From: a virus
Lineage: Duplodnaviria; Caudoviricetes
Length of the DNA: 61,933 bases
Reading direction: 5' to 3' (one strand)
IMG/VR virus record: IMGVR_UViG_3300027798_000045
Location: 1 to 61,933 of that record
The notes beneath the pieces were generated by a model. That model saw only the letters and a program-made list of their open reading frames with translations. It ran no database searches and had not been told where the DNA came from. Within the stretch, counting starts at the first letter, position 1; every line of letters starts with the position of its first letter. Shown here in pieces: positions 9,884-61,933 of the stretch. A program made the position numbers and the translations under genes.

Positions 9884-10066
9884 ATGGATAAAATGAAACT
9901 TGGTGGTGGAGGCCGTTACGAAAAACTTATCGGCTCTCTTGAGAAGAAAGGTGTCAAAGACCCTGCTGCTCTCGCGGCATCAATCGGTCGCAAAAAACTC
10001 GGCAAGGAAAAGTTCCAATCGCTTGCCGCTAAAGGTCGGCGTCGAGCGATGAGAAAAGCGTCCTGA
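9884..10066 (+). CDS. Small basic phage protein
   Basis: 60 aa, K/R-rich, DPAALAASIGRKKLG. Confidence 0.65.
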   Translation: MDKMKLGGGGRYEKLIGSLEKKGVKDPAALAASIGRKKLGKEKFQSLAAKGRRRAMRKAS

Positions 10067-11393
10067 ACGCAAGCTCTGCGGTGGCTGGGACTACTCCATT
10101 TCCGAGGAGTCGGAGTTCGTCGGTTCGATTGTCACCGGACACGCACAGCTTGGAATAGTCCAGCCCACGGGCAGTCCCATCAGGGTTTCTACCCAGCGAG
10201 GATTCAGTTTGCCGTTCGTTTCTCCTAATTTCGGTGTCGCGCCCACTTGATTCTGGAGATAAATCTGCTGGCTGTGCGCTTGGTTCTTCTCCTCCGCTGC
10301 GGATGGTGTTCTCCATTGCTTGACCTGTAACGTCAACGGCATCGTTGCCACGTCCCCCTTGGCTTGCCTCAAGGCCCATGTCTCCTGATTCTCGTCTGTG
10401 ACCTTGCCCGACCTTGGTGTCGCCCACAATTGCCGCTTCTCCTTCTCCACCATCTCTACTTGCTGATTGATGGTTTGAGATTGTAGCACTAGGCGACCAT
10501 CCGGTTGTAGCCTGTACGCCCTCTCTCCGGGTTTCGCTGGTTGACCGTCTTTCGTGAATAACGTCTCCACCCTGGCTCCAGCCTCGTTGGCTGATGGCGT
10601 TCTCCATTGAGATGACAACTCTGGGGGGTTCCCATGAGTGTTGGGGGATTGATGGACGACTCGGCCAGACCGTGATTTTTCCAATTTCGTACGGTTTACT
10701 TGATAACCATGAACCTCTGGATGATTGCTCAACCCCAGTTGTCCATAATTCGGACGACAACTGATCTTGCCCGCTTCCGCTGTTGTGGGTGTTGGCCAAG
10801 TCATCATTGTTATGTCCGACAAATTCTCTGGATTGCCTTTGTATGCTCTTGCTGATGGCCCTTTCCAATCCCTCGTCGTTGCGGTTGGCCAAGATGAAGA
10901 CTCGTTTGCGTTGATGAGGCGCGCCAACTTCAGCCGCGCTGAATATGCCCCACGTTGTTCTGTAACCCATTCTTCCCAAGTCTTCGATGACGTTGGACAA
11001 CCCCAACGAGATATGTCCTTCGACATTTTCAAAGAAACAGATACTTGGTCGCATTGAATCAATTCCATCTGCAATCCAAGGCCATAAATGTCTTGGGTCA
11101 TCTTTTCCGGCTCGCTTGCCTGCTGCGCTGAATGGTTGGCATGGATAACCGCCAGTGAGGAGGCCCACTTGGTCACGAAACGCTCCCCAAGGGAAGGTTT
11201 TAAGATCCGGCCAGATAGGTGCCGGGTCCATGAGTCCCGCTTCCATTTTTGCAACCAGGTTCGCAATGGCAAACGCTTCGATCTCACAAAGAGCGACTGT
11301 TCGCAGATTCGGGATGACTCTTTTAAGTCCAAGTTCAATGCCTCCGTATCCAGCGCACAAGCCAACGTGTGTAATTGTTTTGGTAGAATCCAT
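10029..11393 (-). CDS. DNA (cytosine-5) methyltransferase, catalytic alpha polypeptide (copy 1)
   Basis: Motifs I LCAGYGG, IV GYPCQPFS, VI FFENVEG, VIII PHQRKRVF, X LLGNGVVP; motif IX absent from this frame; start reassigned to ATG 11393. Confidence 0.9.
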   Translation of the reverse strand: MDSTKTITHVGLCAGYGGIELGLKRVIPNLRTVALCEIEAFAIANLVAKMEAGLMDPAPIWPDLKTFPWGAFRDQVGLLTGGYPCQPFSAAGKRAGKDDPRHLWPWIADGIDSMRPSICFFENVEGHISLGLSNVIEDLGRMGYRTTWGIFSAAEVGAPHQRKRVFILANRNDEGLERAISKSIQRQSREFVGHNNDDLANTHNSGSGQDQLSSELWTTGVEQSSRGSWLSSKPYEIGKITVWPSRPSIPQHSWEPPRVVISMENAISQRGWSQGGDVIHERRSTSETRREGVQATTGWSPSATISNHQSASRDGGEGEAAIVGDTKVGQGHRRESGDMGLEASQGGRGNDAVDVTGQAMENTIRSGGEEPSAQPADLSPESSGRDTEIRRNERQTESSLGRNPDGTARGLDYSKLCVSGDNRTDELRLLGNGVVPATAELAFRTLFSSLDADL

Positions 11394-11398
11394 GTCAT
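10091..11398 (-). CDS. C5 methyltransferase beta polypeptide in overlapping alternate frame (W-x-T-P modules plus motif IX), copy 1
   Basis: 435-aa ORF starting 5 nt upstream of the alpha ATG; five W-[PRA]-T-[PA] modules; LNPRWVETLMGLPVGWT is motif IX-like; same architecture as M.EcoHK31I. Confidence 0.8.
   Translation of the reverse strand: MTWILPKQLHTLACALDTEALNLDLKESSRICEQSLFVRSKRLPLRTWLQKWKRDSWTRHLSGRILKPSLGERFVTKWASSLAVIHANHSAQQASEPEKMTQDIYGLGLQMELIQCDQVSVSLKMSKDISRWGCPTSSKTWEEWVTEQRGAYSARLKLARLINANESSSWPTATTRDWKGPSARAYKGNPENLSDITMMTWPTPTTAEAGKISCRPNYGQLGLSNHPEVHGYQVNRTKLEKSRSGRVVHQSPNTHGNPPELSSQWRTPSANEAGARVETLFTKDGQPAKPGERAYRLQPDGRLVLQSQTINQQVEMVEKEKRQLWATPRSGKVTDENQETWALRQAKGDVATMPLTLQVKQWRTPSAAEEKNQAHSQQIYLQNQVGATPKLGETNGKLNPRWVETLMGLPVGWTIPSCACPVTIEPTNSDSSEME
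10929..11055 (+). repeat. 127-bp exact repeat, identical to window end 61807-61933
   Basis: Base-by-base comparison; the flanking mismatch is 10928 (C) vs 61806 (T). Confidence 0.95.
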
Positions 11399-11410
11399 TT
11401 TGGTGATGGT

Positions 11411-11629
11411 TTACTTTTTCGCCCGGTGTATCACGCGCGCATCCTCCAATTCGGAGGGCCACGTCATCCAGCCCTTTTCACGGGCCTCGGCGAGCAGGCC
11501 GGGAAGCTCCGCGAGTTCGTTCGCAGACAGCCCCTTCGATTGCATGGCAGCCTTCAACTCTCCGGGGCGAGGTCCGGACTTGTACTCGCCCTTCCATCGC
11601 TTGCTGAATCCGCTGGTGTGGTGACTCAT
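11411..11629 (-). CDS. Hypothetical protein
   Basis: ATGA-coupled to upstream gene in the leftward operon. Confidence 0.6.
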   Translation of the reverse strand: MSHHTSGFSKRWKGEYKSGPRPGELKAAMQSKGLSANELAELPGLLAEAREKGWMTWPSELEDARVIHRAKK

Positions 11630-47064: not shown

Positions 47065-50000
47065 ATGCCGAAACTTGTCGATTTCGAGGGAGTCGGAACC
47101 GTCGAGGTTCCGGATGATTTCCGTGACTCTGAGCTGACCGACCTCTACGGCCAGCTCTCCCAAGGTCGCCACTCCTCCGCGGCGAATGCGTTCATGCGGG
47201 CCGGAGGTGAGATGCTCGGTGGTGCCCTGTCCGGCGCGGCCAGAGTCATCCAAGCGTTCCCGCCTCCGACGCACAACCCGTACACCGGCGCTCCCATCCC
47301 GCGCGGGCCGGCAGTTCCGCTCGAAGAGGAGCCCATCTACAAGTTCGGGCAGGACCTGTCTGCCGGCGCTCGCGAAGCCTACCCCGTCAACCCGCTTCAC
47401 GCCGACAACCTCGAAACCGCCGTCGCGTCCGGGGCGGGTTCCGTGGTCGGGCTTCTGCCGTCTGCGCTTGCCGGCCCGCTGGCACCGGTGGCATCCGGCC
47501 TTACCTACGGCCTCTCCTCCGGAGAACAGGGCGCACAAGAGGCGTCGCAGTCCATCGACAACCAGATTGCCCAAGCTCTCGCGAAGGGCGACGAGGAGAC
47601 GGCGCAGCGGCTCACGCAAGCGAAGCCCGGCATCGTGAACAAAGCATTCGCGGGGTACGGCCTCGCGGGCGCTCTGTCCGAGGGCGCGCTCGGTGTGGCT
47701 GGAAAGCTCCCGATGCTCGCGAAGATGGGTGCGAAGCGCGGCGTCGTGAACAGCGCGCTGCGTGGGGCTGGAACGGAGGCGCTGCAAGAGGGCGGAGAGC
47801 AGGCCATTCAGAACATCACGTCGAAAGCGCTCTACGACCCGAACCGTTCGATAACCGAAGGCGTCACCATGAACGCCGGCGCGGGAGGCATCGTTGGCGG
47901 ACTGTTCGGCGGCGGCGCGGCATCCCTCGGGGCGCGTCAGCGCAAGGCCCGTCTCGACGCCATCCGGGCGGACCGAGCTGGTCGCGTGCTGAACCCCATG
48001 AGCCCAGAGGACGCAGCTCTGGCCCCGCTGTCCGCGAGCGCCGTGAAGTCCACCGCGGCGGAGGCGGAGGATTTCCTGAGCAAGCAGCTCACGGCGGAGG
48101 ACCTCGGGCTGGATACGGGTGCCGCACCGGTGAACCCAGACGCGGCCTACCAGCCTCCGGTCGCGACAGGCCCGGTCGCCACGGTTGCGACGCCGGAGGA
48201 GATTGCACAGGCGAAAGCCGATGCTGAGGCGCAAGCGGCTCCAGGACCGGCAGCCACCGTCACAGCCGGCACACCAACGGTCACTCCGACTCCCGAACCT
48301 CCCGAGGTTATCGCCGCGCAGCTCGCGCTCACAGCCAGCCCGGATTCGTCCAAGGCGGTCACGCTGGTCACGCCCGGCGAGGACGTGCCACCCGTTCCAG
48401 AGGGCCTGCAAGCCGCGGAGACGCAGCACGGGACCGCGATTTTCAACCCGCAGAAAACGACGGAGCAGCAGGTCGAGGAGGCCGCGGCGGGCGACATCTT
48501 CGACCCCGCGTTGCTCGGGATGGGCGCGGCCGTGCCCGAGTCCGAGGTGGCCGTAACGACCACCGGCCCGGATGGAACCCGGAACGTGCTCTCGGAGCTG
48601 GTGACGGAAGAAACCGTCCAGCAGGCCATGCAGGCGCAGCAAGCGGCTGTTCCGGGCGGGACCACGGAAGTCGTGCCTGCGGGCCAAGTGTTGCAGGAGA
48701 GGGGGCGGGGAGCAGGCTCTGATATTTTGGGCATCATTTCTGACGCTCGCGCTACGCAGGCACGCTTTCTGAAAGAAAAAGGAACAACGATTGAGGAAGC
48801 ACGAAAACTGCCAAAGACACAGCAGGCAAAACTGCAATCCGATTACGAAGCGTGGCTAAAGACGGAAGGCGGATTCACTATTGCGCCGCAAGCAGGCGAC
48901 ACTACGGGATGGAAAAGAACGCAAGACTGGCGCAAGGCCGTTGAACAAGTTACAGACATTGAGGATAAACTGGACTGGCTTCGGGCTGTTGCAAACAACA
49001 GAGGTTCTAAAGCGACTGCGCTGGATTTGTCGGACGCACTAGACAAAGTGGAATCATTGCGCCGCGAATGGCCGGAGCATAGCCGCATTGGGAACGCTCT
49101 ATGGGACATCGCTCAAAACCCAGCGGCATCAGCAGAAACGAAAGCGCGGGCAATGGCGGCTCGTGAAGATTTGCTTTCTCAAGGGGGAAAGTTCCCCGAC
49201 CTCGCGACCACCCCCACCGCCGAGACAGGGGCGAAGGGGAAGATAATTGGTGAGCGTGTTATTCCAAAAGATTGGACAGTTTTGACCGAACAGGAAAATC
49301 CGCCACTCGACAGAGACTTGGCTGACTACTCGAAATGGAGACGGGACATTGCAGCCAGAGTTCTTCCTGAAGGAACTCACATTGAACGGGAGTCGTTGCA
49401 GATGGAAATTTCAAATGCAATTTCCGAAGAAACTGCCAAAAAGAATCCAGACGGGAAACCAAAGTATGACCAGTGGCAGACGCATATTGTCGGACAGAGA
49501 ATCGCCGGAGAGTTGATTACGGGCAAACGCGCTGACATTCTCAGAAAAGCCAAAGACCGCGCCTTGCGGGATGAATACTCTCAATGGGACATGGGCATGG
49601 AATGGCTGGATGACAAGCCAGCCCCGCTATCTGTTGAAGCATACAAGAAACACAGCAATGGAAAACCGTTGCCGGATGGCTTCGTAAAAGAAGGCGACCG
49701 CTACGTTTTCAAACCAAAGCCCGCCGCCGAGGCAGGGGCGAAGGGGACAAGTCTTGCTGAACTCCAATCCAAGCGTGATGCAACCGAGGCACAGCGAAAA
49801 GCCGAGGATGCCAGGCCGAGAAAGCAAGGATTGCGAAGCGCCAAGGCAATAGATTTACAAAAGCAGGTCGAAGAACTCGACGCGCAAATCGCACCACTGA
49901 AAGACGCAGAGCAGGCGCGCTTCAAGGCAGAAGCCACAACCCAAGAATCACAGGCGAGATTGGAAAAAGAGCGTATCGACAAAACGCCGTTGTCTGGGGA

Positions 50001-53000
50001 CGAAAAGACGGAACTTGAAAGCCTGCGATTCTCACTGGAATACCGAGGCAATCTACCAGCGGACAGGGGTGCTCGGTTGCGAGAACTTGAGATTCGAGAA
50101 AAGATCGCGCCCGCCCCCGCCGCCGAGACAGTGGCGAAGGGGAAGCCGGTGGAAACCGGAGTGGTTGATACGATTGCTGGGCGCATGGGCTTGTCCGAGT
50201 TCGAGAATAAAGGTTACGCGCCAGAACAAGTAACTCGCCAGAACTGGATTGATCTTCAACGCGCCGAACGGCGACGCCTTGGACAACAGGAAGGTGGAGA
50301 TAATCGCAACGCGCCTTGGGCAGAATACGAAAACTTCCACGAAGACGCGGTAAAGCGAGCACTTGCGAAAGGTGAAGAGGTTGATTCTCAAGTCTTGGCC
50401 GACTACCCCAACCTCGCCCCCACCACCCAGCCCGCCCCCAAGCCGGTGGAGCAGATGACGGCGGAGGAGCAGGCCCAAGTCAGCGACGACGTGACATGGA
50501 GGACGGGGGCCGGCGACATGGCGCGTGCGACAGTTCAGCGCATTTCAAAATTACCCTACGACGCAGAGCCGATGGCGGATGTGGACTGGTTCGGAGTTAA
50601 GCGCGTTCCAGTGTCGCAGCTTAGGATTGTGAAAAAGTCTTCCCGGCGCGTGTTCGGGGAACAATCGGCAGCAAAATCCGCAGCAGCTCAGACCCCTCAA
50701 ACCGTTGCGGCAGACGCTCCAAAAGCGGTAAGAGGAAAAGTCGAGGTAAAGGTTCGCAACCCATACGGATTAGCTCCAGAAAACGAAAAGATTCAGACAG
50801 TCACAGGAAAGATAATCACGCTTGATTCCGCATCCGGCCATGAGTTTGTAATTTACCCAACTGGGAAATACTGGAGAGTAGTTGAGAAAACTACCGGAAG
50901 TTCGTTTGGAAACGAAACCAAGACAACTCAAAAAGATGCAATAGAATCCGCAGAATTTGCGTTAAGGTCGGTAAAGCCGGGGCTGTTCAACCAAGTGGTA
51001 AAAGATGCTGAAAAGCTGAATCCAGACCTCAAGGCCACACCCTCACCCGCCGCCACTGCCCCGCAGCCCGCCGCGGTCCCGACCGAAGGCGTCGGTTCCA
51101 TCTACACCGGCCAGCTCAAGGGCGAACCGGCATGGGTGGTTCAGCAGGGGGAAAAGAAGGGTGTCGGCGACACAATCTGGCGCTCGCGATCGGAGGCCGA
51201 GAAGGAATCTGCCGGAACAATAAAGCGCATCGCTCGGCGCGCGGAGATTCTGAAAGAGGAGGAGGCTGCGAAGGCAAAGGCTGCGGCAGACCTTGCCGAA
51301 CAAAGCAAGCTCGACGGCTTCGAGGAAGGCATGACGCCGGTGCAGCTCGGCCGCGCTAGGAAGGTGCTGTCTGAGACCCGCACAATCTGGAACGGAAAAG
51401 AGGACACGCGCAGGAACCACATCAAGCGCCTCGTGAACGAGGGGCGCACCATTGACGTTGGGCCGAACGGCAAGCGTAGGCTCATCACTCCCGACGGGTC
51501 GTTCTTCGGCGAGGACCAGACCACGAAGCTCGGGATGGACTACGCCGCGCATCTGATCGAGAACCGGAACGAAGAGGCTCAGGTCGCGGTCGAGCAGCCC
51601 GCCCCGGCACTCCCCTCCGAACCTGCCCGCGTCCAACTCCGTTCCGGCCCGCAAACCTACACCATCGAGGAGCAACTGCCCGCGCATAAGGGAGACCAAC
51701 CCGGCGAGGTGTACTTCCGGGTCAAGAACGAGAAGACGGGCGAGGTGCAGACCGTCGAGTCAGGGGATTTGAAGCCGGTCAAGGGGAAGGCCGGCGCGCA
51801 GGCTCAGGCCGACCCCGTCGAAGCCATCCTGACCCGCGCGATTGACGCGACCAACCCGCAGGGCAAGACGTTCGACTTCGTCTCCGGCGTTTCCCACGCG
51901 GTCGCGCACACCGCCCTGAAAATCGCTCGCGCGGTGTACATCTCGACGCGGGACATGGCCGCTGCCGTGCGGGCCGCCGTCGCCCACATGCGCGACAACG
52001 CGACGGAGGGGTTCAACGAGGCCAAGGCGGAGGCGAAAGTAAGGGAGGCGCTGGGGGAGGGCCGTTCTGATTCGAGTATTTGGGAAATTCCAAACCAAGA
52101 AATCACCAGCGCAGATACTTCAATAAACGAACGGAAAACTCCGGCAACTTTCTCTAAGGTTTCGTTTGAGCCTGGAACTAAAAATGCAGACATAGGAGGT
52201 GGCAGGTTTGATAATGCTACCGAGTTGCTATCTAAGATTGGTGTTGAGAACGTAATCTTTGACCCGTTCAACCGTTCGCGGGCAGAAAATGAGGTGGCCG
52301 TTGGGAAAATTTCAAACGGGCAGTCCGATACAGCCACGGTGAACAATGTGCTGAACGTCATCAGTGACCCGGAAAACCGAGACAGGGTGATAGCGCAAGC
52401 GGCGGACGCCATCAAGGAAGACGGGACCGCCTACTTCCTGATCTACGAAGGCGACAAGACCGGGACCGGCAGGGTCACAAAGTCCGCCAACGGAGTGCCT
52501 GGAAGCTGGCAGGAAAACAGAAGCGCAGCATCGTATGTAAATGAAATCAGTGACCATTTTTCAGAAGTCAGCCGCTCTGGGAATCTGATTGCAGCAAGGG
52601 GGCCAATCAAGGAGACGGCAAAGGTTCAGAAGGCGCTTGGTAACACGAAGGCATCCAAGCGCAATAGCCTTCGCGTCCGACTATCCAGGGAGGCGCTCAC
52701 GGACCTCGCACTATCTCAGGCGAAGTGGAGGGACTGGTACAAGGAGCACCAGGACACACTCGACGCATTCTTCGGAAGCGACGCTGGCCTGTTCCAGAAA
52801 ATCCTAGCCATCACCTCGCAGGCGGCTTCGGTGAAGGCAAACGTCGGGCTCGCATTGAAGGCGTTCGCGCAGTTCAAGCAGGGCCTTGATTTCGACGGCA
52901 AGACGCGCGGCGAGGAGTCGTCCGGGTATCTTCCGGCAGTCATCGGGAACCTGAACGCGCTTCGGGCCGAGACGCAGATTCAGGGCCGGAAGATTGGCGC

Positions 53001-56000
53001 GTACACGTCCGCGAACGAGGGCAAGACCGATTCCGTTGTCGTTGACCGGCACATCGCCAGGATGCTGTTCGGGGTCGATACCCCGTCCGCCGCGCAGTAC
53101 GCGAAGGCGTCCAAGGTTCTGACGGAAATCGCCAACGAGCTTGGATGGGAACCTCGTCAGGTTCAGGCAGCACTTTGGGCCGCATCAATCGTAAAATCTG
53201 GAAAGGAACCGCAATCTTATGGACAATATCTCAGGACGTTACACTCAAGAGGAACCCTCAAAGAGCGAATTGGACACGTTGTTGACCGAAGCTCAGAAGT
53301 CCATGGAAATGGCGGACTCGGGGTCGCTGATTCTGGAGGAGTTCAAGAGGCGGATGGAGGCGGAAAGCAGCCCGAGGCCGACGCGGTAGAGGGGTTTTTC
53401 AACAGGGCCATCGAGGTCACGGACCCGAGGGGGAAAGCCTTCGACTTCGTCTCGGGTGTTTCCTACGCGGTGGCAAACGCGGCACTCAAAATCGCGCGGG
53501 CCGTGTACATCCGAACTCGCGATATGGCTTCCGCTGTTCGCGCGGCGGTGGAGCACATACGGGAGAACTCCGAAATCGGATTCGATGAGGCGGCAGCCGA
53601 ATCCAAGATCCGTGAGACGCTATCCAGCGAGCCCGCCATCCAGCCCCCCGCCGCCGCACCCGGAGCCCGCACGCAAGAATCCCGCGGGCAGTTCACGGGG
53701 CTCATCACGCGCGACGGGGCCGCACAGTGGTCCGAGGCTGCGGCCGGCTGGATCAAGCAGTTCAACGGCGACCTGAACGCGGCAACGGTGGCGGCAATCG
53801 GCGGCGAACTTCCGTCCGACGTGCGGCAGTTCGTTTTTGGGCAGCTCCTGGAGCTGACGAATCAGGCCATCGCGACGACGAAGAACCCCGTCGAACGGAA
53901 CCAGCTCCTGAACCTGCAAGCCCGGCAGGCGGACGCGATGAAGGACTCCGGCGCGCTCGGCGGCAAGACCCTCGCGGCCCGCTTCCTCGCGATGAAAGCC
54001 ATCGAGCACATCATGCCGGTGTTGCTCTACCGCGGCCTCGTCCGGAAGGCGCAGCTCCAGGCCATCCCGTTCACGAGTGTCACGTCGGATGCGGTCCGGT
54101 CGTGGCTCACGCAAGCCGGCCGACAGGCTGTCGCGGAGACACGCGAGGCGATGACCAAGGCCAACGCAGTCGTGGCCCGCGTACTGAAACAGCAAGTCTC
54201 CGATTACGGCCAGACATGGCGCGACATCGTCACAGCCTCCACGGAAGCACAGGGAAACCATCGCGCGGAGATCTTCAAGCGCATCGCCGCCCACCCGGCG
54301 CTCCAGGGGCTCGACCAAGCCTCGCAAATCGAGCTGACGAACCTTCTGTCGGACGCTTGGGAGCGCGAGCGGATGAAAATCTTCCGGGCTGAGTTCCGGA
54401 AAATGGTCCCGCTCCCGAAGAAAACCAAGGAGGTCGATGCGAAGAAGCTGTTCGACGCGATTCCTGACCTCGTCAAGCAGGCGAACCTCGGCCTCCTCGA
54501 CGACGAGCAGTTCCGTGACGCGCTCGCCAAGCGGTACGGCGTGGCGTCCGTGAACGATGCGACCGCTCGCCGGCTGAACGAGATGGCGCAGCAAGCGCAG
54601 AAGGCTCCGTCGGGGGTGATGAGAAGCCGCATCCTGTCGCAGATGGTGGACCTGATTCAAGTCGCTGGCGGAATCTCGAAGGCGCACGTCCTGCGCGACT
54701 ACTGGTACGCCGCGGTGCTATCCAGCCCGCGCACGCAGGTCGATAACGGGATGGCTCTCCTGAACGGAGCGTTGATGACGGCGCTTGCGTCCGCGCGTGA
54801 CCCGCAGGCAGCTCCGTTCGTGTGGCGCGCGTTCACGTCTGGTCTCGCGGAGGCGGGCCGTGATTTCGTTCCCATCCTCCAAGGCGAGCGGTGGCGCATG
54901 TCGAACATCGACATCGACCGGCCCGCGTCCGTGCTGGACGCGCTCCAGAAAAGCCCGAACTACGCCGCGAAGGCTCTAGGCTCGTTTGCCTACGTCGGCC
55001 GTCTTATTGCCGCCCTCGACCATCTGAACACGCTGGCGACCCGTGAGGCGATGCTGGCGTGGGCAATCCACCGGTCCACGGATGGCGACGCCCGCGAGAT
55101 GATGCGCCCCGGACCACAGGACATCGCCGCGGCCCGAGAGCGCGCTGTTCAGGAGGGCACGCCGGCCGCGCTGGTTCAGAAACGCACCCGTGAAATTCTG
55201 GAGGAGCGCATCTCCCCGGAGCTGCTCCTCTCTGCGACGACCATCGGGCAGGAGGCGGCCTACCAGAGCGAACCGTACGGGTTCCTCGGGTACTTCTACC
55301 GGGCCATCAAGGGCCTCGACAAACTGCCCTACGTCGGAGGCGTTTCGCGCATCCTGTCCGGCACCGCGTTCGCCCGGTACGCGGTCAACGCATCGAACGA
55401 CATGCTGAACTACGCAGCCCCGATTGCGCTGTTCAGGTGGTACGTTTCCGCGACCGAGAGGCAGGCAACCTCGAAGTTGAACTTCACCCCGGAGCAGCGG
55501 GACCTGATTTTGATGAAGGCCGCGCTCGGAACCGTGGCAGCAACGGCCGCGGCGGCGGCGTTCCTTGGCGGCGGAGACGACGACAAGAAGAAGCGGGCTA
55601 TCGACATCCAAGGGTCGTTCCGGTCGCTCGAAGGACCGAAGCGAAACCAGCTCCTGGCCGAGGGAAACATCCCCTACTCCATCCGCATCGGGAACACGTA
55701 CGTATCCTACCGGCAGCTTCCGGTGGCCGCTATTCTCGGGACCATCGGTGAGATGCGTGACCGGCAGAAGTACCAGCCGGATCAGTGGAAGGAAGAGTCT
55801 GTCGCGGCAAACATCGGCAACGGTGCGATTGCCGGCATGTTCCTCGTCCGAGACTCGGCTGCAATCAGCTCGTTCATGGACTTCCTCGGCGTCGCAAACG
55901 CCTACAAGTACGACGTGAAGGGCATCTCCGAGAAGTCCATCCCGAGGTACGTGTCGAAGATGCTCGGGTCGCTGGTGCCGAACGCCGCGAAAGACGTCGA

Positions 56001-56448
56001 AGCCTGGGTTGACCCGTCGCTGTACCGCGGCAACTCAGCCGGTGAGTATTTCCTCCAGCAGCTTCCGCTTGCGCGCCAACTTGCAGGTGAAGGCCCGCTT
56101 CTGAATCTCTTCGGCGAGCCGGTTCAGGCCGACAAGTACCCGTGGTCTCGCTGGGTGAGCGGCAGGGAAGTTTCTCCGGAGTGGGAGGCGGCCGGCAACC
56201 TGGCGGCCCGCGGCCTGTTCTTGCCCCAAGTCGCCGGGTTCTCGGTCACGAATGACGACGGAACCCGGCGCAAGGCCACTCCGCGCGAGCTGTACGCCTA
56301 CCAGCGCGAGGTCGGCGCGGGCTACAAGGAGTTCATCCGCGAGAACGCAGCGGAACTGCAAACGATGGACGCGAAGGAAGCGGCGGATTTCATCAAGCGA
56401 GAGACATCTGCAATTCGCCGCGGCGTGCGGTTCGACATCCAGCCTTGA
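47065..56448 (+). CDS. Giant polyvalent ejection protein (3127 aa) with MTase and HhH-glycosylase-like domains
   Basis: Ejection-type N-terminus; NADIGGG...DPFNR...NNVLNVI (SAM MTase); WY...LAITSQ...VVVDRH...QVQAALW; helical C-terminal domain. Confidence 0.8.
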   Translation: MPKLVDFEGVGTVEVPDDFRDSELTDLYGQLSQGRHSSAANAFMRAGGEMLGGALSGAARVIQAFPPPTHNPYTGAPIPRGPAVPLEEEPIYKFGQDLSAGAREAYPVNPLHADNLETAVASGAGSVVGLLPSALAGPLAPVASGLTYGLSSGEQGAQEASQSIDNQIAQALAKGDEETAQRLTQAKPGIVNKAFAGYGLAGALSEGALGVAGKLPMLAKMGAKRGVVNSALRGAGTEALQEGGEQAIQNITSKALYDPNRSITEGVTMNAGAGGIVGGLFGGGAASLGARQRKARLDAIRADRAGRVLNPMSPEDAALAPLSASAVKSTAAEAEDFLSKQLTAEDLGLDTGAAPVNPDAAYQPPVATGPVATVATPEEIAQAKADAEAQAAPGPAATVTAGTPTVTPTPEPPEVIAAQLALTASPDSSKAVTLVTPGEDVPPVPEGLQAAETQHGTAIFNPQKTTEQQVEEAAAGDIFDPALLGMGAAVPESEVAVTTTGPDGTRNVLSELVTEETVQQAMQAQQAAVPGGTTEVVPAGQVLQERGRGAGSDILGIISDARATQARFLKEKGTTIEEARKLPKTQQAKLQSDYEAWLKTEGGFTIAPQAGDTTGWKRTQDWRKAVEQVTDIEDKLDWLRAVANNRGSKATALDLSDALDKVESLRREWPEHSRIGNALWDIAQNPAASAETKARAMAAREDLLSQGGKFPDLATTPTAETGAKGKIIGERVIPKDWTVLTEQENPPLDRDLADYSKWRRDIAARVLPEGTHIERESLQMEISNAISEETAKKNPDGKPKYDQWQTHIVGQRIAGELITGKRADILRKAKDRALRDEYSQWDMGMEWLDDKPAPLSVEAYKKHSNGKPLPDGFVKEGDRYVFKPKPAAEAGAKGTSLAELQSKRDATEAQRKAEDARPRKQGLRSAKAIDLQKQVEELDAQIAPLKDAEQARFKAEATTQESQARLEKERIDKTPLSGDEKTELESLRFSLEYRGNLPADRGARLRELEIREKIAPAPAAETVAKGKPVETGVVDTIAGRMGLSEFENKGYAPEQVTRQNWIDLQRAERRRLGQQEGGDNRNAPWAEYENFHEDAVKRALAKGEEVDSQVLADYPNLAPTTQPAPKPVEQMTAEEQAQVSDDVTWRTGAGDMARATVQRISKLPYDAEPMADVDWFGVKRVPVSQLRIVKKSSRRVFGEQSAAKSAAAQTPQTVAADAPKAVRGKVEVKVRNPYGLAPENEKIQTVTGKIITLDSASGHEFVIYPTGKYWRVVEKTTGSSFGNETKTTQKDAIESAEFALRSVKPGLFNQVVKDAEKLNPDLKATPSPAATAPQPAAVPTEGVGSIYTGQLKGEPAWVVQQGEKKGVGDTIWRSRSEAEKESAGTIKRIARRAEILKEEEAAKAKAAADLAEQSKLDGFEEGMTPVQLGRARKVLSETRTIWNGKEDTRRNHIKRLVNEGRTIDVGPNGKRRLITPDGSFFGEDQTTKLGMDYAAHLIENRNEEAQVAVEQPAPALPSEPARVQLRSGPQTYTIEEQLPAHKGDQPGEVYFRVKNEKTGEVQTVESGDLKPVKGKAGAQAQADPVEAILTRAIDATNPQGKTFDFVSGVSHAVAHTALKIARAVYISTRDMAAAVRAAVAHMRDNATEGFNEAKAEAKVREALGEGRSDSSIWEIPNQEITSADTSINERKTPATFSKVSFEPGTKNADIGGGRFDNATELLSKIGVENVIFDPFNRSRAENEVAVGKISNGQSDTATVNNVLNVISDPENRDRVIAQAADAIKEDGTAYFLIYEGDKTGTGRVTKSANGVPGSWQENRSAASYVNEISDHFSEVSRSGNLIAARGPIKETAKVQKALGNTKASKRNSLRVRLSREALTDLALSQAKWRDWYKEHQDTLDAFFGSDAGLFQKILAITSQAASVKANVGLALKAFAQFKQGLDFDGKTRGEESSGYLPAVIGNLNALRAETQIQGRKIGAYTSANEGKTDSVVVDRHIARMLFGVDTPSAAQYAKASKVLTEIANELGWEPRQVQAALWAASIVKSGKEPQSYGQYLRTLHSRGTLKERIGHVVDRSSEVHGNGGLGVADSGGVQEADGGGKQPEADAVEGFFNRAIEVTDPRGKAFDFVSGVSYAVANAALKIARAVYIRTRDMASAVRAAVEHIRENSEIGFDEAAAESKIRETLSSEPAIQPPAAAPGARTQESRGQFTGLITRDGAAQWSEAAAGWIKQFNGDLNAATVAAIGGELPSDVRQFVFGQLLELTNQAIATTKNPVERNQLLNLQARQADAMKDSGALGGKTLAARFLAMKAIEHIMPVLLYRGLVRKAQLQAIPFTSVTSDAVRSWLTQAGRQAVAETREAMTKANAVVARVLKQQVSDYGQTWRDIVTASTEAQGNHRAEIFKRIAAHPALQGLDQASQIELTNLLSDAWERERMKIFRAEFRKMVPLPKKTKEVDAKKLFDAIPDLVKQANLGLLDDEQFRDALAKRYGVASVNDATARRLNEMAQQAQKAPSGVMRSRILSQMVDLIQVAGGISKAHVLRDYWYAAVLSSPRTQVDNGMALLNGALMTALASARDPQAAPFVWRAFTSGLAEAGRDFVPILQGERWRMSNIDIDRPASVLDALQKSPNYAAKALGSFAYVGRLIAALDHLNTLATREAMLAWAIHRSTDGDAREMMRPGPQDIAAARERAVQEGTPAALVQKRTREILEERISPELLLSATTIGQEAAYQSEPYGFLGYFYRAIKGLDKLPYVGGVSRILSGTAFARYAVNASNDMLNYAAPIALFRWYVSATERQATSKLNFTPEQRDLILMKAALGTVAATAAAAAFLGGGDDDKKKRAIDIQGSFRSLEGPKRNQLLAEGNIPYSIRIGNTYVSYRQLPVAAILGTIGEMRDRQKYQPDQWKEESVAANIGNGAIAGMFLVRDSAAISSFMDFLGVANAYKYDVKGISEKSIPRYVSKMLGSLVPNAAKDVEAWVDPSLYRGNSAGEYFLQQLPLARQLAGEGPLLNLFGEPVQADKYPWSRWVSGREVSPEWEAAGNLAARGLFLPQVAGFSVTNDDGTRRKATPRELYAYQREVGAGYKEFIRENAAELQTMDAKEAADFIKRETSAIRRGVRFDIQP

Positions 56449-58693: not shown

Positions 58694-59221
58694 TTGCGTA
58701 GTCAAGCGGTTGATTGTAGAAATCTTCGCGTGACGACCGTAACGACGCATCAAATGGTTCCGGCCGATGCCCACAGCTTGTCCGTATTGATGCGCGGCAT
58801 CGCTGGCGAGCGGGAGTGGTTCATGGATACCGGGCGCGCGAACGCTGGCGTGTCCATTGGAGACATCGTGATTGCCGAGCAGCGCGGCGGAATCGGAGCG
58901 GTGGCTATCGACCCGAATCCCATCGCCTTCGCCTGCATCTGGCCCGAGCGTCATCAGTACGAAGGTTTCGATCACGTCGGCCGGCTGTCGATGGGCGTCG
59001 CGAAGCAGTATCGCCGGCAGGGAATCGGCCGGAAGCTCCTCGAAGCCGTGCTGGCCGCGACGAAATTCGAGCGCGTCGAGCTGGAGGTCTTCGAGCACAA
59101 CGAGGCTGCCGTCGCGCTGTACCGCCAGTTCGGATTCGAGACCGAAGGCGTGAAGCGCAACGCGAGATTTTTGGACGGAAAATACATGAACCTCGTACTT
59201 ATGGCGCGTCTCCGCGCATGA
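58694..59221 (+). CDS. GNAT acetyltransferase (start uncertain)
   Basis: MGVAKQYRRQGIGRKLL, LEVFEHNEAAVALYRQFGF. Confidence 0.85.
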   Translation: MRSQAVDCRNLRVTTVTTHQMVPADAHSLSVLMRGIAGEREWFMDTGRANAGVSIGDIVIAEQRGGIGAVAIDPNPIAFACIWPERHQYEGFDHVGRLSMGVAKQYRRQGIGRKLLEAVLAATKFERVELEVFEHNEAAVALYRQFGFETEGVKRNARFLDGKYMNLVLMARLRA

Positions 59222-60204
59222 AACCCACCCGCTGGTCCTCCCTTGCCGACGCCTACCTGAGCGCCGGCTGCCCTGGACGTAACGGGATGCCCAAATCCCC
59301 GACGGCCGCTTCCATGGACCGCATCCGCATTGAGCGACTGCGGCCCACCTTCGGGCGCAGCAAGCTGGCGAACATCGGCCTCCTATCCGCCATCACGTAC
59401 GGTCGCAGCCAGACCGAACGCCCGCGGGCCGCTGAGCAGGAACTCGACACGCTGTCGGCCACGCTGTCGTTCGCTGCGCTGCACGGCTGGATTCCAGTGA
59501 ACCCAATCGTGCGCCGGCCGAAGCTCCAGAACGCCGCCGACGTGCGCCATTGCCGCGAGGTGATGCCGGTGGACGGCGACGAGCTGCACAGGCTAGCCTC
59601 GGAGATGTTCAGCGACGTAGCCAGCGAGGCCACCGGGTGGCAGATGCTGTTCGAGGCGCTGACGGGCTGTCGCACGTCGGAGATCCTGTCGTTTCGGATG
59701 GACGCCAAGTCGAAGCAGGAGCCGGGCTACATCGAGGGCCGGTTCCTGTACGTGCGGCGGTCCAAGGCGGGCCGGTTCCCGTTCGTGACGCTCCACCCCG
59801 CGCTCGTGACTGCGATCGAGTGGCATCGCAAGTGGCACGCCGCGACGTACGGTGACGCTTCGCCCTGGTGGTTTCCCGGCCGCGACCTGGCCCGCCCGCT
59901 GAACCGGGTGTCGCTGACGCACCGGCTGGCCGCGATTTGCAAGCGCCTTGGCCTCGGGCATCGTACCAGCCACGGGATGCGCGCGTTCTTCGTGACCGTG
60001 ATGCGGTCGCGAGGCACGTCGAACGAGCAGGTTGCGGCCATGATCGGCGACCGGACATCCTCGCTCATCGAGACGACCTACGGCGCGTTGCCCGAGGTCT
60101 GGTCGGGAGGCGAGCCGATGGATTGGATGCCGCGCGAGGGCGCTCCGGCTTGGAAGATTTTTGATGCACACAACGAACACGTAAACCAACCATGCAATTC
60201 CTAA
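59218..60204 (+). CDS. int: Tyrosine recombinase/integrase
   Basis: TGCRTSEI, HGMR, MIGD...TTY catalytic residues; ATG 59218 coupled to the GNAT stop. Confidence 0.88.
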   Translation: MKPTRWSSLADAYLSAGCPGRNGMPKSPTAASMDRIRIERLRPTFGRSKLANIGLLSAITYGRSQTERPRAAEQELDTLSATLSFAALHGWIPVNPIVRRPKLQNAADVRHCREVMPVDGDELHRLASEMFSDVASEATGWQMLFEALTGCRTSEILSFRMDAKSKQEPGYIEGRFLYVRRSKAGRFPFVTLHPALVTAIEWHRKWHAATYGDASPWWFPGRDLARPLNRVSLTHRLAAICKRLGLGHRTSHGMRAFFVTVMRSRGTSNEQVAAMIGDRTSSLIETTYGALPEVWSGGEPMDWMPREGAPAWKIFDAHNEHVNQPCNS

Positions 60205-60888: not shown

Positions 60889-61932
60889 TTACAAGTCGCT
60901 CGCCAGCGTCCTGAACGCAAGCTCTGCTGTGGCTGGCACTACGCCATTTCCGAGGAGTCGGAGTTCGTCGGTTCTATTGTCACAGGACACGCACAGCTTG
61001 GCATAGTCCAGCCCACGGGCAGTCCCATCAGGGTTTCTACCCAGCGAGGGTTGAGTTTCCCCTGCGTGTGCAGCTTCTTCACCTGATCCGCAATACCCAC
61101 TTGCGGATCTTTCGGCGTACGGTTGGTCAGTTTTACTCCTTCTGGCTTTGCTTCGATTAACTGCGAGGTTGGTGTTCTCCACGCTTTCGGTGTCGCGCCC
61201 ACTTGATTCTGGAGATAAATCTGCTGGCTGTGCGCTTGGTTCTTCTCCTCCGCTACGGATGGTGTTCTCCATTGCTTGACCTGTAACGTCAACGGCATCG
61301 TTGCCACGTCCCCCTTGGCTTGCCTCAAGGCCCATGTCTCCGGGTTCTCGTCTGTGACCTTGCCCGATCTTGGCGTCGCCCACGATTGCCGCTTCTCCTT
61401 CTCCACCATCTCTACTTGCTGATTGATGGTTTGAGATTGTAGCACCAGGCGACCATCCGGTTGTAGCCTGTACGCCCTCTCTCCGGGTTTCGCTGGTTGA
61501 CCGTCTTTCGTGAATAACGTCTCCACCCTGGCTCCAGCCTCGTTGGCTGATGGCGTTCTCCATTGAGATGACAACTCTGGGCGGTTCCCATGAGTGCTGG
61601 GGCTGGCTGGGGCGGGACGGCCATTGGCAATAGCTTGCTGCACGGCGATTGTCAAAGGCGTCCCCATTCCGTTCCCATTGCGATGCTTCTCTATGTTTCG
61701 AGCCTTCCTCGCCTCCCATGAGGCTAATGTTTCCCCATCGTTCACTACGGCTCCGCTTGGAGTGGGCCAAGATGAAGACCCGTTTGCGTTGATGAGGCGC
61801 GCCAATTTCAGCCGCGCTGAATATGCCCCACGTTGTTCTGTAACCCATTCTTCCCAAGTCTTCGATGACGTTGGACAACCCCAACGAGATATGTCCTTCG
61901 ACATTTTCAAAGAAACAGATACTTGGTCGCAT
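60889..61932 (-). CDS. C5 methyltransferase alpha polypeptide, copy 2 (5' part cut by window end)
   Basis: FFENVEG, PHQRKRVF, LLGNGVVP; near-identical to copy 1 outside the variable modules. Confidence 0.88.
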   Translation of the reverse strand: MRPSICFFENVEGHISLGLSNVIEDLGRMGYRTTWGIFSAAEIGAPHQRKRVFILAHSKRSRSERWGNISLMGGEEGSKHREASQWERNGDAFDNRRAASYCQWPSRPSQPQHSWEPPRVVISMENAISQRGWSQGGDVIHERRSTSETRREGVQATTGWSPGATISNHQSASRDGGEGEAAIVGDAKIGQGHRREPGDMGLEASQGGRGNDAVDVTGQAMENTIRSGGEEPSAQPADLSPESSGRDTESVENTNLAVNRSKARRSKTDQPYAERSASGYCGSGEEAAHAGETQPSLGRNPDGTARGLDYAKLCVSCDNRTDELRLLGNGVVPATAELAFRTLASDL

Positions 61933-61933
61933 T
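60939..61933 (-). CDS. C5 methyltransferase beta polypeptide, copy 2 (alternate frame, 5'-truncated)
   Basis: Five W-x-T-P modules and LNPRWVETLMGLPVGWT. Confidence 0.8.
   Translation of the reverse strand, partial: CDQVSVSLKMSKDISRWGCPTSSKTWEEWVTEQRGAYSARLKLARLINANGSSSWPTPSGAVVNDGETLASWEARKARNIEKHRNGNGMGTPLTIAVQQAIANGRPAPASPSTHGNRPELSSQWRTPSANEAGARVETLFTKDGQPAKPGERAYRLQPDGRLVLQSQTINQQVEMVEKEKRQSWATPRSGKVTDENPETWALRQAKGDVATMPLTLQVKQWRTPSVAEEKNQAHSQQIYLQNQVGATPKAWRTPTSQLIEAKPEGVKLTNRTPKDPQVGIADQVKKLHTQGKLNPRWVETLMGLPVGWTMPSCACPVTIEPTNSDSSEMA

Follow-up and report, generated by a model that had tools for sequence, protein, structure and literature searches.

Does one stretch of phage DNA encode two full-length polypeptides in two frames of the same strand, and do the two chains act together as one enzyme? 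The question is raised by a gene in the window, that is, the whole stretch of 61,933 nucleotides analysed here (IMG/VR record IMGVR_UViG_3300027798_000045; Caudoviricetes). A sequence-only reading of the window had proposed a cytosine-5 (C5) methyltransferase composed of two polypeptides, alpha and beta, read from two frames in the manner of M.EcoHK31I. This proposal is supported by the conservation of both frames, by selection, by the prediction of an alpha–beta complex and by two relatives with a different partition of motifs between the chains (L010 and L008). The gene, with two full-length frames on the same strand, most likely encodes a heterodimeric DNA (cytosine-5) methyltransferase, and we regard this reading as probable.

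Organization of the locus

The dual-frame gene is on the minus strand. Its coordinates and its two open reading frames (ORFs) of 454 and 435 residues, which start 5 nt apart on one strand and both stay open, had been read correctly from the sequence (Table 1). The ATG of alpha lies 5 nt downstream of the ATG of beta in the -1 register, and both starts are contained within ATGACATGG. Paired starts 2, 5 or 8 nt apart are present in all 57 related loci checked, the spacing being +5 in 27, +2 in 24 and +8 in 6 of them. The +2 relatives have ATGTGG, in which GTG is the alpha start. A Shine-Dalgarno-like tetramer is not seen upstream of the window gene, and a shared Shine-Dalgarno site has been rejected as a general feature because such a tetramer lies upstream in only 21 of the 57 loci.

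The second copy of the gene, the 5' part of which is cut by the end of the window, is also open in both frames, as had been noticed in the sequence-only reading. It is a mosaic paralogue and not a duplicate, with three blocks of 93-99% identity lying between unrelated blocks.

Table 1. Features of the dual-frame gene and of its paralogue in the window
Feature	Position	Strand	Length or residues	Description
ORF beta	10091..11398	-	435 aa + stop	alpha covers all but its first 5 nt
ORF alpha	10029..11393	-	454 aa + stop	putative C5-methyltransferase catalytic subunit
Dual start	11390..11398	-		ATGACATGG; beta ATG 11398-11396, alpha ATG 11393-11391
Alpha catalytic part	10884..11393	-	alpha 1-170	motifs I LCAGYGG, IV GYPCQPFS, VI ENV, VIII QRKRVFI
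Alpha island	10617..10667	-	alpha 243-259	WPSRP..WEPPRV, within the linker region
Alpha C-terminus	10029..10133	-	alpha 421-454 + stop	motif X (..LLGNGVVP..) and C-terminal helix
Beta N-domain	10889..11398	-	beta 1-170	overprinted on the alpha catalytic core
Beta module array	10217..10891	-	beta 170-394	five W-x-T-P/A modules
Beta C-terminal block	10139..10216	-	beta 395-420	NGKLNPRWVETLMGLPVGWT.., motif-IX-like, invariant
Second dual-frame copy	60889..61933	-		paralogue; alpha-like 60889-61932, beta-like 60939-61931

Conservation of and selection on the two frames

Chance cannot explain the open frames. When codons are shuffled with the alpha protein kept fixed, the beta frame acquires a mean of 8.7-8.9 stop codons, and the reciprocal shuffle with the beta protein kept fixed yields a mean of 14-29 stops; none of 2000 shuffles in either direction is stop-free. 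The third sense frame of the gene contains 24 stops, and the alternative frames of six neighbouring ORFs contain 4-48. Both frames are open over 942-1719 nt, with starts spaced 2-8 nt apart, in 80 of 100 related loci drawn from many samples and phyla (74 of the 80 viral and 6 of the 20 genomic loci). Alpha is in the -1 register of beta in every one of the 80 two-frame loci. At least 9 of the remaining 20 loci are also two-frame, lying outside the filters used for the count. Exceptions are an in-frame alpha stop in two relatives (L051 and L022) and an altered motif IV in another (L095). Strain-to-strain indels are multiples of three (189, 192 and 240 nt), and no indels are listed at the stretch in four independent runs. 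When the stretch is divided into 30 bins, contigs from RNA libraries span 26 and 16 of them, which neither demonstrates transcription nor bears on translation.

The variability of codon phases along the gene shows that the selected frame is alpha over beta residues 1-165, beta over residues 166-420 and again alpha over residues 421-435. The entropy at the 4-fold sites of alpha is 0.49 (n=20) over beta residues 1-80, 1.48 (n=13) over residues 81-120 and 0.70 (n=11) over residues 121-170, with Mann-Whitney p=2.7e-5 (1-80 vs 81-120) and 1.3e-3 for the differences. Since the synonymous sites of alpha are constrained over beta residues 1-80, this stretch is truly dual-coding. Residues 1-80 and 121-170 of beta are under purifying selection of their own, residues 81-120 are unconstrained, and Pro-6, Thr-11, Ala-33, Pro-44, Thr-58 and Gly-63 of beta are conserved although their wobble bases vary. 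The frame-specific selection check suggested along with the sequence-only reading reveals, by wobble variability and 4-fold-site entropy, purifying selection in each of the two frames. Both frames are open, conserved and under selection in a very large family, the beta part of which comprises 26,571 representative clusters (E<=1e-3).

The alpha chain

The AF2 model of alpha alone consists of a C5-methyltransferase core and a motif X helix, with a disordered middle. Residues 1-170 have pLDDT values mostly of 85-95, and the alpha wobble is the most variable codon phase in this region. The match to Pfam PF00145 is limited to residues 10-204 (E 3.5e-32) and includes motif I at residues 12-18, of which Tyr-16, Gly-17 and Gly-18 are invariant among 58 sequences. 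Motifs IV, VI and VIII, the columns of which are invariant, align with their counterparts in M.HhaI and E. coli Dcm (hhalign probability of 95.6% for Dcm). The alpha profile matches M.HhaI with an E value of 5.6e-17, and a Foldseek search with the alpha model also finds M.HhaI (E 4.6e-11). Motif X at residues 429-436 is invariant, the columns of residues 421-454 show a mean frequency of the commonest residue of 0.97, and the helix of residues 436-453 has pLDDT values of 83-92. The motif X region is matched by profile positions 292-319 of phrog_1008 and by the profile end of phrog_363, which aligns to alpha residues 2-445. Alpha thus carries motifs I-VIII and X, as had been noticed in the sequence-only reading. 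A motif IX and a target-recognition domain are not found in the alpha chain, and its TIGR00675 score of 84.4 bits is under the cut-off of 100.65 of that family.

The middle of alpha had been described as junk, which is true of most of it: residues 195-420 have no family match and, one island aside, are unconserved and disordered in the model. The description fails for the island at residues 243-259, the columns of which are invariant or nearly so among the 58 sequences. The alpha wobble is the most variable phase there, the beta 4-fold sites Gly-245 and Gly-256 are frozen across the island, and alpha residues 240-262 fall in the predicted alpha–beta interface. In the relatives L008 and L010, alpha stops shortly after the island.

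The beta chain

W-x-T-P modules had been noticed where alpha looks like junk, and the five modules of beta, at Trp-170, Trp-201, Trp-265, Trp-325 and Trp-362, indeed occupy this region. The beta wobble is the most variable phase in the array, the number of modules varies from 1 to 7 among relatives, and modules have been swapped between the two copies of the gene in the window. The alpha frame of the array encodes disordered, unconserved linkers with pLDDT values below 50. The array lies outside the predicted alpha–beta interface. The modules are presumably the target-recognition part of the enzyme.

The columns from Lys-397 to Trp-413 in the C-terminal block of beta are invariant, and the beta wobble is the variable phase in this block. 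The assignment of motif IX to beta is upheld only insofar as the invariant block is motif-IX-like, its likeness to E. coli Dcm not being significant: the sole stretch aligned by hhalign, NGKLNPRWVETLMGL with Dcm residues 399-413, has an E value of 0.45 and a probability of 0.13%. We take these Dcm residues to be the place of its motif IX. [quoted passage not shown] These relatives argue for a role of beta as a methyltransferase subunit.

Beta had been thought to consist of target recognition and motif IX only. This picture is too narrow, because its first ~170 residues are also under selection and are predicted to hold alpha. Searches of Pfam, NCBIfam and PDB sequences with beta give no match, and an ESM Atlas search with beta residues 1-170 retrieves unnamed viral clusters alone (scores of 0.90-0.92). 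Beta by itself models poorly in AF2 (mean pLDDT of 54 and pTM of 0.26). It had also been expected that gene callers would miss beta. However, 3192 database proteins match it, most of them labelled 'hypothetical protein' and some, depending on the source, 'predicted transcriptional regulator'; it is the pairing of alpha with beta that goes unnoticed. Three candidates for stand-alone beta genes (L015, L017 and L019) have been rejected, each being two-frame as well. A single-frame fusion has also been rejected: among the 120 matches listed to beta residues 250-435, only P0370 carries PF00145, and it is a chimera with alpha and then beta in sequence.

Predicted complex and possible mechanism

Structure prediction of alpha and beta as a complex, proposed as a check when the gene was first noticed, has passed its controls. 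The ipSAE score is 0.85 in three runs compared with 0.01 for the best of three controls. Of 157 solved complexes, 116 attain the ipSAE mark, as do 2 of 215 mismatched pairs; the score, obtained with purpose-made alignments that both derive from the same DNA, may partly reflect the likeness to solved single-chain C5 methyltransferases. The runs share at least 63% of contacts, and the pLDDT of the partners is at least 59. In the model, beta contacts alpha through residues 1-9, 32-40, 55-86 and 127-172, its C-terminal block is placed against the motif X and motif I regions of alpha, residues 395-426 of beta belonging to the predicted clamp, and the best-supported contacts are not between residues of overlapping codons. 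The prediction supports, but does not prove, the binding of alpha and beta to each other.

A possible mechanism begins with ribosomes that would choose between two start codons spaced by 5 nt. Translation of the alpha frame would yield the large catalytic domain with motifs I-VIII, the island as a short hinge-like element and the helix of motif X; between them would run long disordered linkers, on which the sole demand may be the absence of a stop codon. The beta frame would produce the N-domain of about 170 residues, the variable W-x-T-P array and the invariant motif-IX-like end. The N-domain and the C-terminal block of beta would clamp alpha, leaving the module array free, presumably for reading the DNA target. 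Both frames would be translated, the pair would methylate cytosine with a specificity set by the modules, and the enzyme would protect phage DNA from restriction.

Alternative explanations

One alternative is that one frame is translated and the other is open through base composition, or that the layout is an assembly artefact. This is hardly credible given that none of the 2000 shuffles reproduces the open frames, that the layout recurs in 80 of 100 independent loci, which come from many samples and phyla, that each frame is under separate purifying selection and that the four independent runs list no indels. Programmed ribosomal frameshifting between the frames could instead yield a single canonical methyltransferase chain, and the order of selected frames does match the motif order of a monomer (I-VIII, variable region and IX, X). 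However, the alpha-frame island in the middle would require four shifts (+1, -1, +1, -1). Frameshifting would also leave unexplained the stop-free alpha linkers and first 170 codons of beta in 80 of 100 loci, the protein-level conservation of the extreme N-terminus of beta and the paired starts in 57 of 57 loci, and is therefore highly improbable.

It is also conceivable, albeit unlikely, that beta is a real protein with an independent DNA-binding, anti-defence or regulatory function and that alpha is a self-sufficient short C5 methyltransferase. The occurrence on a single chain of motifs I-VIII and X together with the island, the end-to-end alignment with phrog_363, the lack of significant likeness of beta to any target-recognition domain or motif IX and the regulator names on some beta-like proteins would agree with such independence. 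However, the places expected for the target-recognition domain and motif IX are not filled by any conserved or foldable segment of alpha, motif X is fused to the beta end in L010 and L008, and the predicted interface sets the beta C-terminal block on the motif X and I regions of alpha. In addition, beta-like segments and motif X come together in the single profile phrog_1008, and the nested relatives from Paenibacillus phages carry the annotation cytosine methyltransferase.

Comparison with known systems

M.EcoHK31I is the closest known case to the heterodimeric methyltransferase proposed here. According to PMC2836561 and PMC3404938, both alpha and beta of M.EcoHK31I are required, beta is produced from another frame of the alpha gene, and motifs I-VIII and X are on alpha whereas motif IX is on beta. 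The window beta, too, is read from a second frame within the alpha gene. In M.EcoHK31I, beta is small and nested in alpha, and the target-recognition domain is on alpha. In contrast, the overlap is complete here: beta begins 5 nt ahead of alpha and extends over the entire gene, its 170-residue N-domain lies over the catalytic motifs, and the variable region belongs to it as a whole; the family is also huge. The middle of the window alpha is an unconserved linker, unlike that of M.EcoHK31I alpha as described.

GenBank records of Paenibacillus larvae phages (Fernvirus: Leyra, Bloom and others) contain a methyltransferase CDS of ~345 aa with a nested 234-aa CDS in another frame, both annotated as 'DNA cytosine methyltransferase'. 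The available part of PMC6070908, on Paenibacillus larvae phages, has no discussion of the overlap. W-x-T-P modules and a LNPEWVECLMGFPIGWT end, like those of the window beta, are present in the nested protein, which matches beta residues 246-414 or 321-414 with 31-38% identity. Its start lies ~60 codons inside alpha, unlike the adjoining starts of the window gene.

The genes of M.AquI presumably do not overlap. M.AquI is a split C5 methyltransferase with motifs IX and X on its small subunit, according to PMC3404938. The relatives L010 and L008 show the same partition, whereas motif X is on alpha in the window gene. Among 50,697 GenBank phage records, the 'DNA methyltransferase' of phage C75C1 (OQ984151.1) is the sole full-length match to the beta frame, covering 94% of the query with 30% identity. 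Both frames are open in C75C1, and the annotation covers the alpha frame alone. The openly searchable literature has yielded no account of a methyltransferase pair that overlaps completely.

Implications

If both chains are made, the gene is a conserved 1.3-kb same-strand overlap with demonstrable purifying selection in both frames, occurring in sequence clusters that number tens of thousands, from freshwater phages and from prophages of many phyla. M.EcoHK31I would then no longer be an isolated oddity but the first example to be studied of a widespread design, and many 'hypothetical proteins' and short, domain-lacking phage methyltransferases would be halves of one enzyme. Such genes would provide a natural system for codon sharing by two proteins, for one ribosome-binding region feeding two frames and for the rebuilding of specificity through swaps of modules in which both frames have to remain open. 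Gene callers retain one frame or the other, and therefore predictions of methylation capacity and of phage–host relations that rest on their calls are incomplete.

A broader proposal, which we advance only tentatively, is that the 'short' C5 methyltransferases of phages and prophages form a very large class in which the complete two-frame layout is the rule. In each ORF one part would be ancestral and another overprinted, and the W-x-T-P modules would be exchangeable target-recognition cassettes. If true, few families of same-strand overlapping genes known in prokaryotic viruses would be larger or longer (1-1.7 kb), and the cassettes would render the enzyme multispecific and open to reprogramming by module swaps. 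Regular use of the beta frame by ribosomes would then also account for the expression of 'hidden' out-of-frame HNH homing endonucleases in methylase genes. [quoted passage not shown] The actinophage methylases of PMC11855218 have no match to the window beta at E<=1e-5. Out-of-frame HNH insertions like that of ShiLan are also carried by members of the present family (L022, L092 and L097), with the HNH ORF in the beta frame, and alpha stays open through the ~600-nt HNH insertion in L092 and L097.

Layout of the gene

The sequence-only reading of a heterodimeric C5-methyltransferase encoded in two frames is supported, with corrections, by the layout of the gene, the selection acting on it, a predicted complex and natural variants. 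The two overlapping same-strand ORFs that it described are found at 10029-11398 on the minus strand. The start codons of the catalytic chain, alpha, and of its proposed partner, beta, both lie in the nonamer ATGACATGG, and so alpha is in the -1 register of beta, with codon position 1 of alpha corresponding to position 3 of beta. Residues 1-170 of alpha contain C5-methyltransferase motifs I, IV, VI and VIII, motif X is located at the alpha end, and the Pfam match to PF00145 is confined to residues 10-204. Beta, which has no match in Pfam, NCBIfam or PDB sequences, contains five W-x-T-P/A modules and has a motif-IX-like C-terminal end, NGKLNPRWVETLMGLPVGWT.

Reading frames and associated features in the window and in related loci (L-numbered)
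Feature	Position	Strand	Length	Remark
Alpha ORF	11393 to 10029	minus	454 aa	
Beta ORF	11398 to 10091	minus	435 aa	
72-codon ORF	11411-11629	minus	72 codons	stop 12 nt upstream of beta ATG
Giant ORF	47065-56448	plus	3127 aa	inside high-GC part
Integrase-like ORF (phrog_1)	58816-60204			after high-GC part, before second copy
Second copy	60889-61933			both frames open; 5' part lost at window end
L010 alpha	L010:2958-3803		282 aa	ends just past island
L010 beta	L010:2974-4863		630 aa	motif-IX-like block, then motif X
(GA)n tract	L008:3677-3720			read as ERERERERE; precisely at frame switch
HNH endonuclease ORFs	L022:4207-4779, L092:1262-1876, L097:3853-4452		191-205 aa	beta frame
Alpha in-frame stop	L051:3567-3569			in linker
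Alpha in-frame stop	L022:3381-3383			in motif VI

Selection in the two frames

In 58 sequences chosen from 77, with beta proteins less than 85% identical, the most variable codon phase is the wobble position of alpha over beta residues 1-165, that of beta over residues 166-420, except for a short island at 243-262, and again that of alpha over residues 421-435. The frame-switch order alpha, beta, alpha is the motif order of the monomeric enzyme, which is not the whole story of the selection pattern. Conserved four-fold codons of alpha have a third-position entropy of 0.49 over beta residues 1-80 (n = 20) and of 0.70 over 121-170 (n = 11), compared with 1.48 over the middle segment, 81-120 (n = 13; Mann-Whitney test against this segment: p = 2.7e-5 for 1-80 and p = 1.3e-3 for 121-170). 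Conversely, beta P6, T11, A33, P44, T58 and G63 are kept despite variation of their wobble bases, which are first codon positions of alpha. Therefore, the N-terminal domain of beta is under selection as a protein, overprinted on the catalytic motifs of alpha. Outside the island, WPSRP..WEPPRV (243-259), and some positions that precede motif X, the alpha linkers show no amino-acid constraint.

Structure models

In an AF2 model of alpha alone, built from an alignment of 58 rows, the C-terminal helix is confident, and residues 1-190 form a confident Rossmann-type core, which Foldseek places on M.HhaI (E 4.6e-11), M.HaeIII and DNMT1. Residues 195-430 have a pLDDT below 50, with a slight rise at the island. 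The earlier impression that the alpha middle looks like junk does not extend to the conserved island. The model of beta alone is poor (mean pLDDT 54), and no solved analogue of its N-terminal domain was found (0 PDB sequence matches). Prediction of the alpha-beta complex, which had been proposed as a check, gives an ipSAE of 0.85 in all three runs compared with 0.01 for the best of three controls; of 157 solved complexes and 215 mismatched pairs, 116 and 2, respectively, attain that mark. Contact agreement between the runs is at least 63% and partner pLDDT at least 59. The model supports alpha-beta binding, short of demonstrating it.

The predicted interface consists of alpha residues 6-75, 128-161, 240-262 (island) and 413-453 (motif X region) and beta residues 1-9, 32-40, 55-86, 127-172 and 395-426, with the module array (beta 173-394) lying outside it. 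Three caveats apply to this prediction. The input alignments are author-built, and both derive from the same DNA, although the best predicted contacts (alpha 60 to beta 4 and alpha 430 to beta 403, for instance) join residues without shared codons. In addition, the predicted packing of the motif IX-X part may echo solved monomeric enzymes.

Natural variants

Two related loci, L010 and L008, carry motif X on beta, with alpha ending after the island in both, and so the catalytic-domain helix is able to sit on either chain, an exchange that is difficult to account for without assembly of the two chains. This partition is that of M.AquI as described in an excerpt of PMC3404938. The (GA)n tract at the L008 frame switch may be a site prone to slippage or an artefact of assembly. 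In L022, L092 and L097, an HNH ORF directly follows the recoded, truncated end of beta, resembling the 'hidden HNH' of phage methylases in an excerpt of PMC11855218. The alpha frame is uninterrupted across the insert of about 600 nt in L092 and L097, which indicates selection on alpha to continue as far as motif X. Beta-frame translation might explain the expression of such HNH ORFs. In Staphylococcus phage CUB-EPI_14, a related HNH is present within a CDS annotated as cytosine methyltransferase.

Contigs of strain variants skip 189, 192 or 240 nt, all multiples of three, in the module region (window 10425-10887), and no further indels are listed in the strain variants of four independent runs. 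PCP replaces PCQ in motif IV of L095; this oddity and the alpha stops of L051 and L022 may represent decaying copies or sequencing errors.

Alternative explanations and the preferred reading

The double open frame exceeds chance expectation: when the alpha protein is fixed and synonymous codons are shuffled, the beta frame has a mean of 8.7-8.9 stops and is stop-free in 0 of 2000 shuffles, and the reciprocal shuffle with the beta protein fixed gives a mean of 14-29 stops in the alpha frame, again with 0 of 2000 stop-free. There are 24 stops in the third sense frame of the window gene and 4-48 in the alternative frames of six neighbouring ORFs. Beside these counts, a gene using one frame only is very improbable. 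Equally improbable is frameshifting that would yield a single chain. Database protein P0370 is a chimera that follows the alpha frame as far as motif IV and the beta frame from there on, probably owing to an indel within the stretch where beta is unconstrained. Paired starts are found in all 57 non-redundant loci with sufficient upstream sequence, at a spacing of 5 nt in 27, 2 nt in 24 (ATGTGG, with alpha initiating on GTG) and 8 nt in 6. A Shine-Dalgarno-like tetramer is present upstream in 21 of the 57 and absent upstream of the paired starts of the window gene; no obvious Shine-Dalgarno sequence lies between the 72-codon ORF and the beta ATG, and translational coupling from that ORF into both starts is possible.

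The least improbable of the three alternatives, and still an unlikely one, is that beta is an unrelated protein overprinted on a methyltransferase. None of the 120 beta homologues listed has a Pfam domain, and their names are 'hypothetical protein' or 'predicted transcriptional regulator'; on the other side stand the predicted complex and the exchange of motif X between chains. The preferred reading, a probable one, is that the window gene would work like M.EcoHK31I minus two of its descriptive features. According to excerpts of PMC2836561 and PMC3404938, M.EcoHK31I requires both chains, its alpha carries motifs I-VIII, motif X and the target-recognition domain, and its beta, entirely inside another frame of the alpha gene, carries motif IX. 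In contrast, the window beta is not a small nested chain, and it includes the variable region.

Distribution

Of 7373 database candidates, 3192 are homologues of beta at E<=1e-3, typically 45-55% identical over the full length. When 1.84 billion representatives are searched with a beta profile, 26,571 clusters pass E<=1e-3, of which 10,553 also pass E<=1e-10 and 2,095 pass E<=1e-30. The alpha middle (residues 195-420) has just 20 matches among 1010 candidates. Both frames are open by strict criteria in 80 of 100 related loci (74/80 from viral contigs and 6/20 genomic), with an overlap of 942-1719 nt (median 1245) and an invariable -1 register of alpha relative to beta. The 20 uncounted loci are likewise two-frame but have motifs that diverge more (L011-L015, L017, L019), are two-frame without passing the motif or length filter (L095, L100), have motif X in the beta frame (L008, L010), an HNH insertion (L022, L092, L097) or one in-frame stop in alpha (L051), or are short or unclear (L002, L003, L016, L018, L020). 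The genomic matches are MAGs labelled Verrucomicrobia, Alpha- and Gammaproteobacteria, Saccharibacteria, Bacteroidales, Dehalococcoidia, Saprospiraceae and others, and the window stretch itself is present in 24 runs of 24 studies, almost all freshwater metagenomes.

In GenBank records of Paenibacillus larvae phages, a second CDS is annotated inside the methyltransferase CDS in an alternate frame, and the protein of this nested CDS is related to the window beta; the overlap is not discussed in the excerpt of their genomics paper (PMC6070908). Among cultured-phage records, a full-length beta-frame match is found in C75C1 only, where the alpha frame alone is annotated. No description of a fully overlapping methyltransferase pair was found in the open full-text literature.

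Second copy and surrounding DNA

The second copy is open in both frames, as had been noted from the sequence. Compared with copy 1 (10029-11462), it consists of three blocks 93-99% identical alternating with unrelated blocks; the swaps lie in the module region, and both frames are open throughout. Copy 2 is a mosaic paralogue of copy 1. The GC content of the 61,933-base virus record is about 50% over 1-12 kb, a part which contains tail-protein matches and copy 1, and rises to about 62% between 12 and 58.8 kb; this uneven composition could reflect two phage-derived ends around host-like DNA, or one mosaic element.
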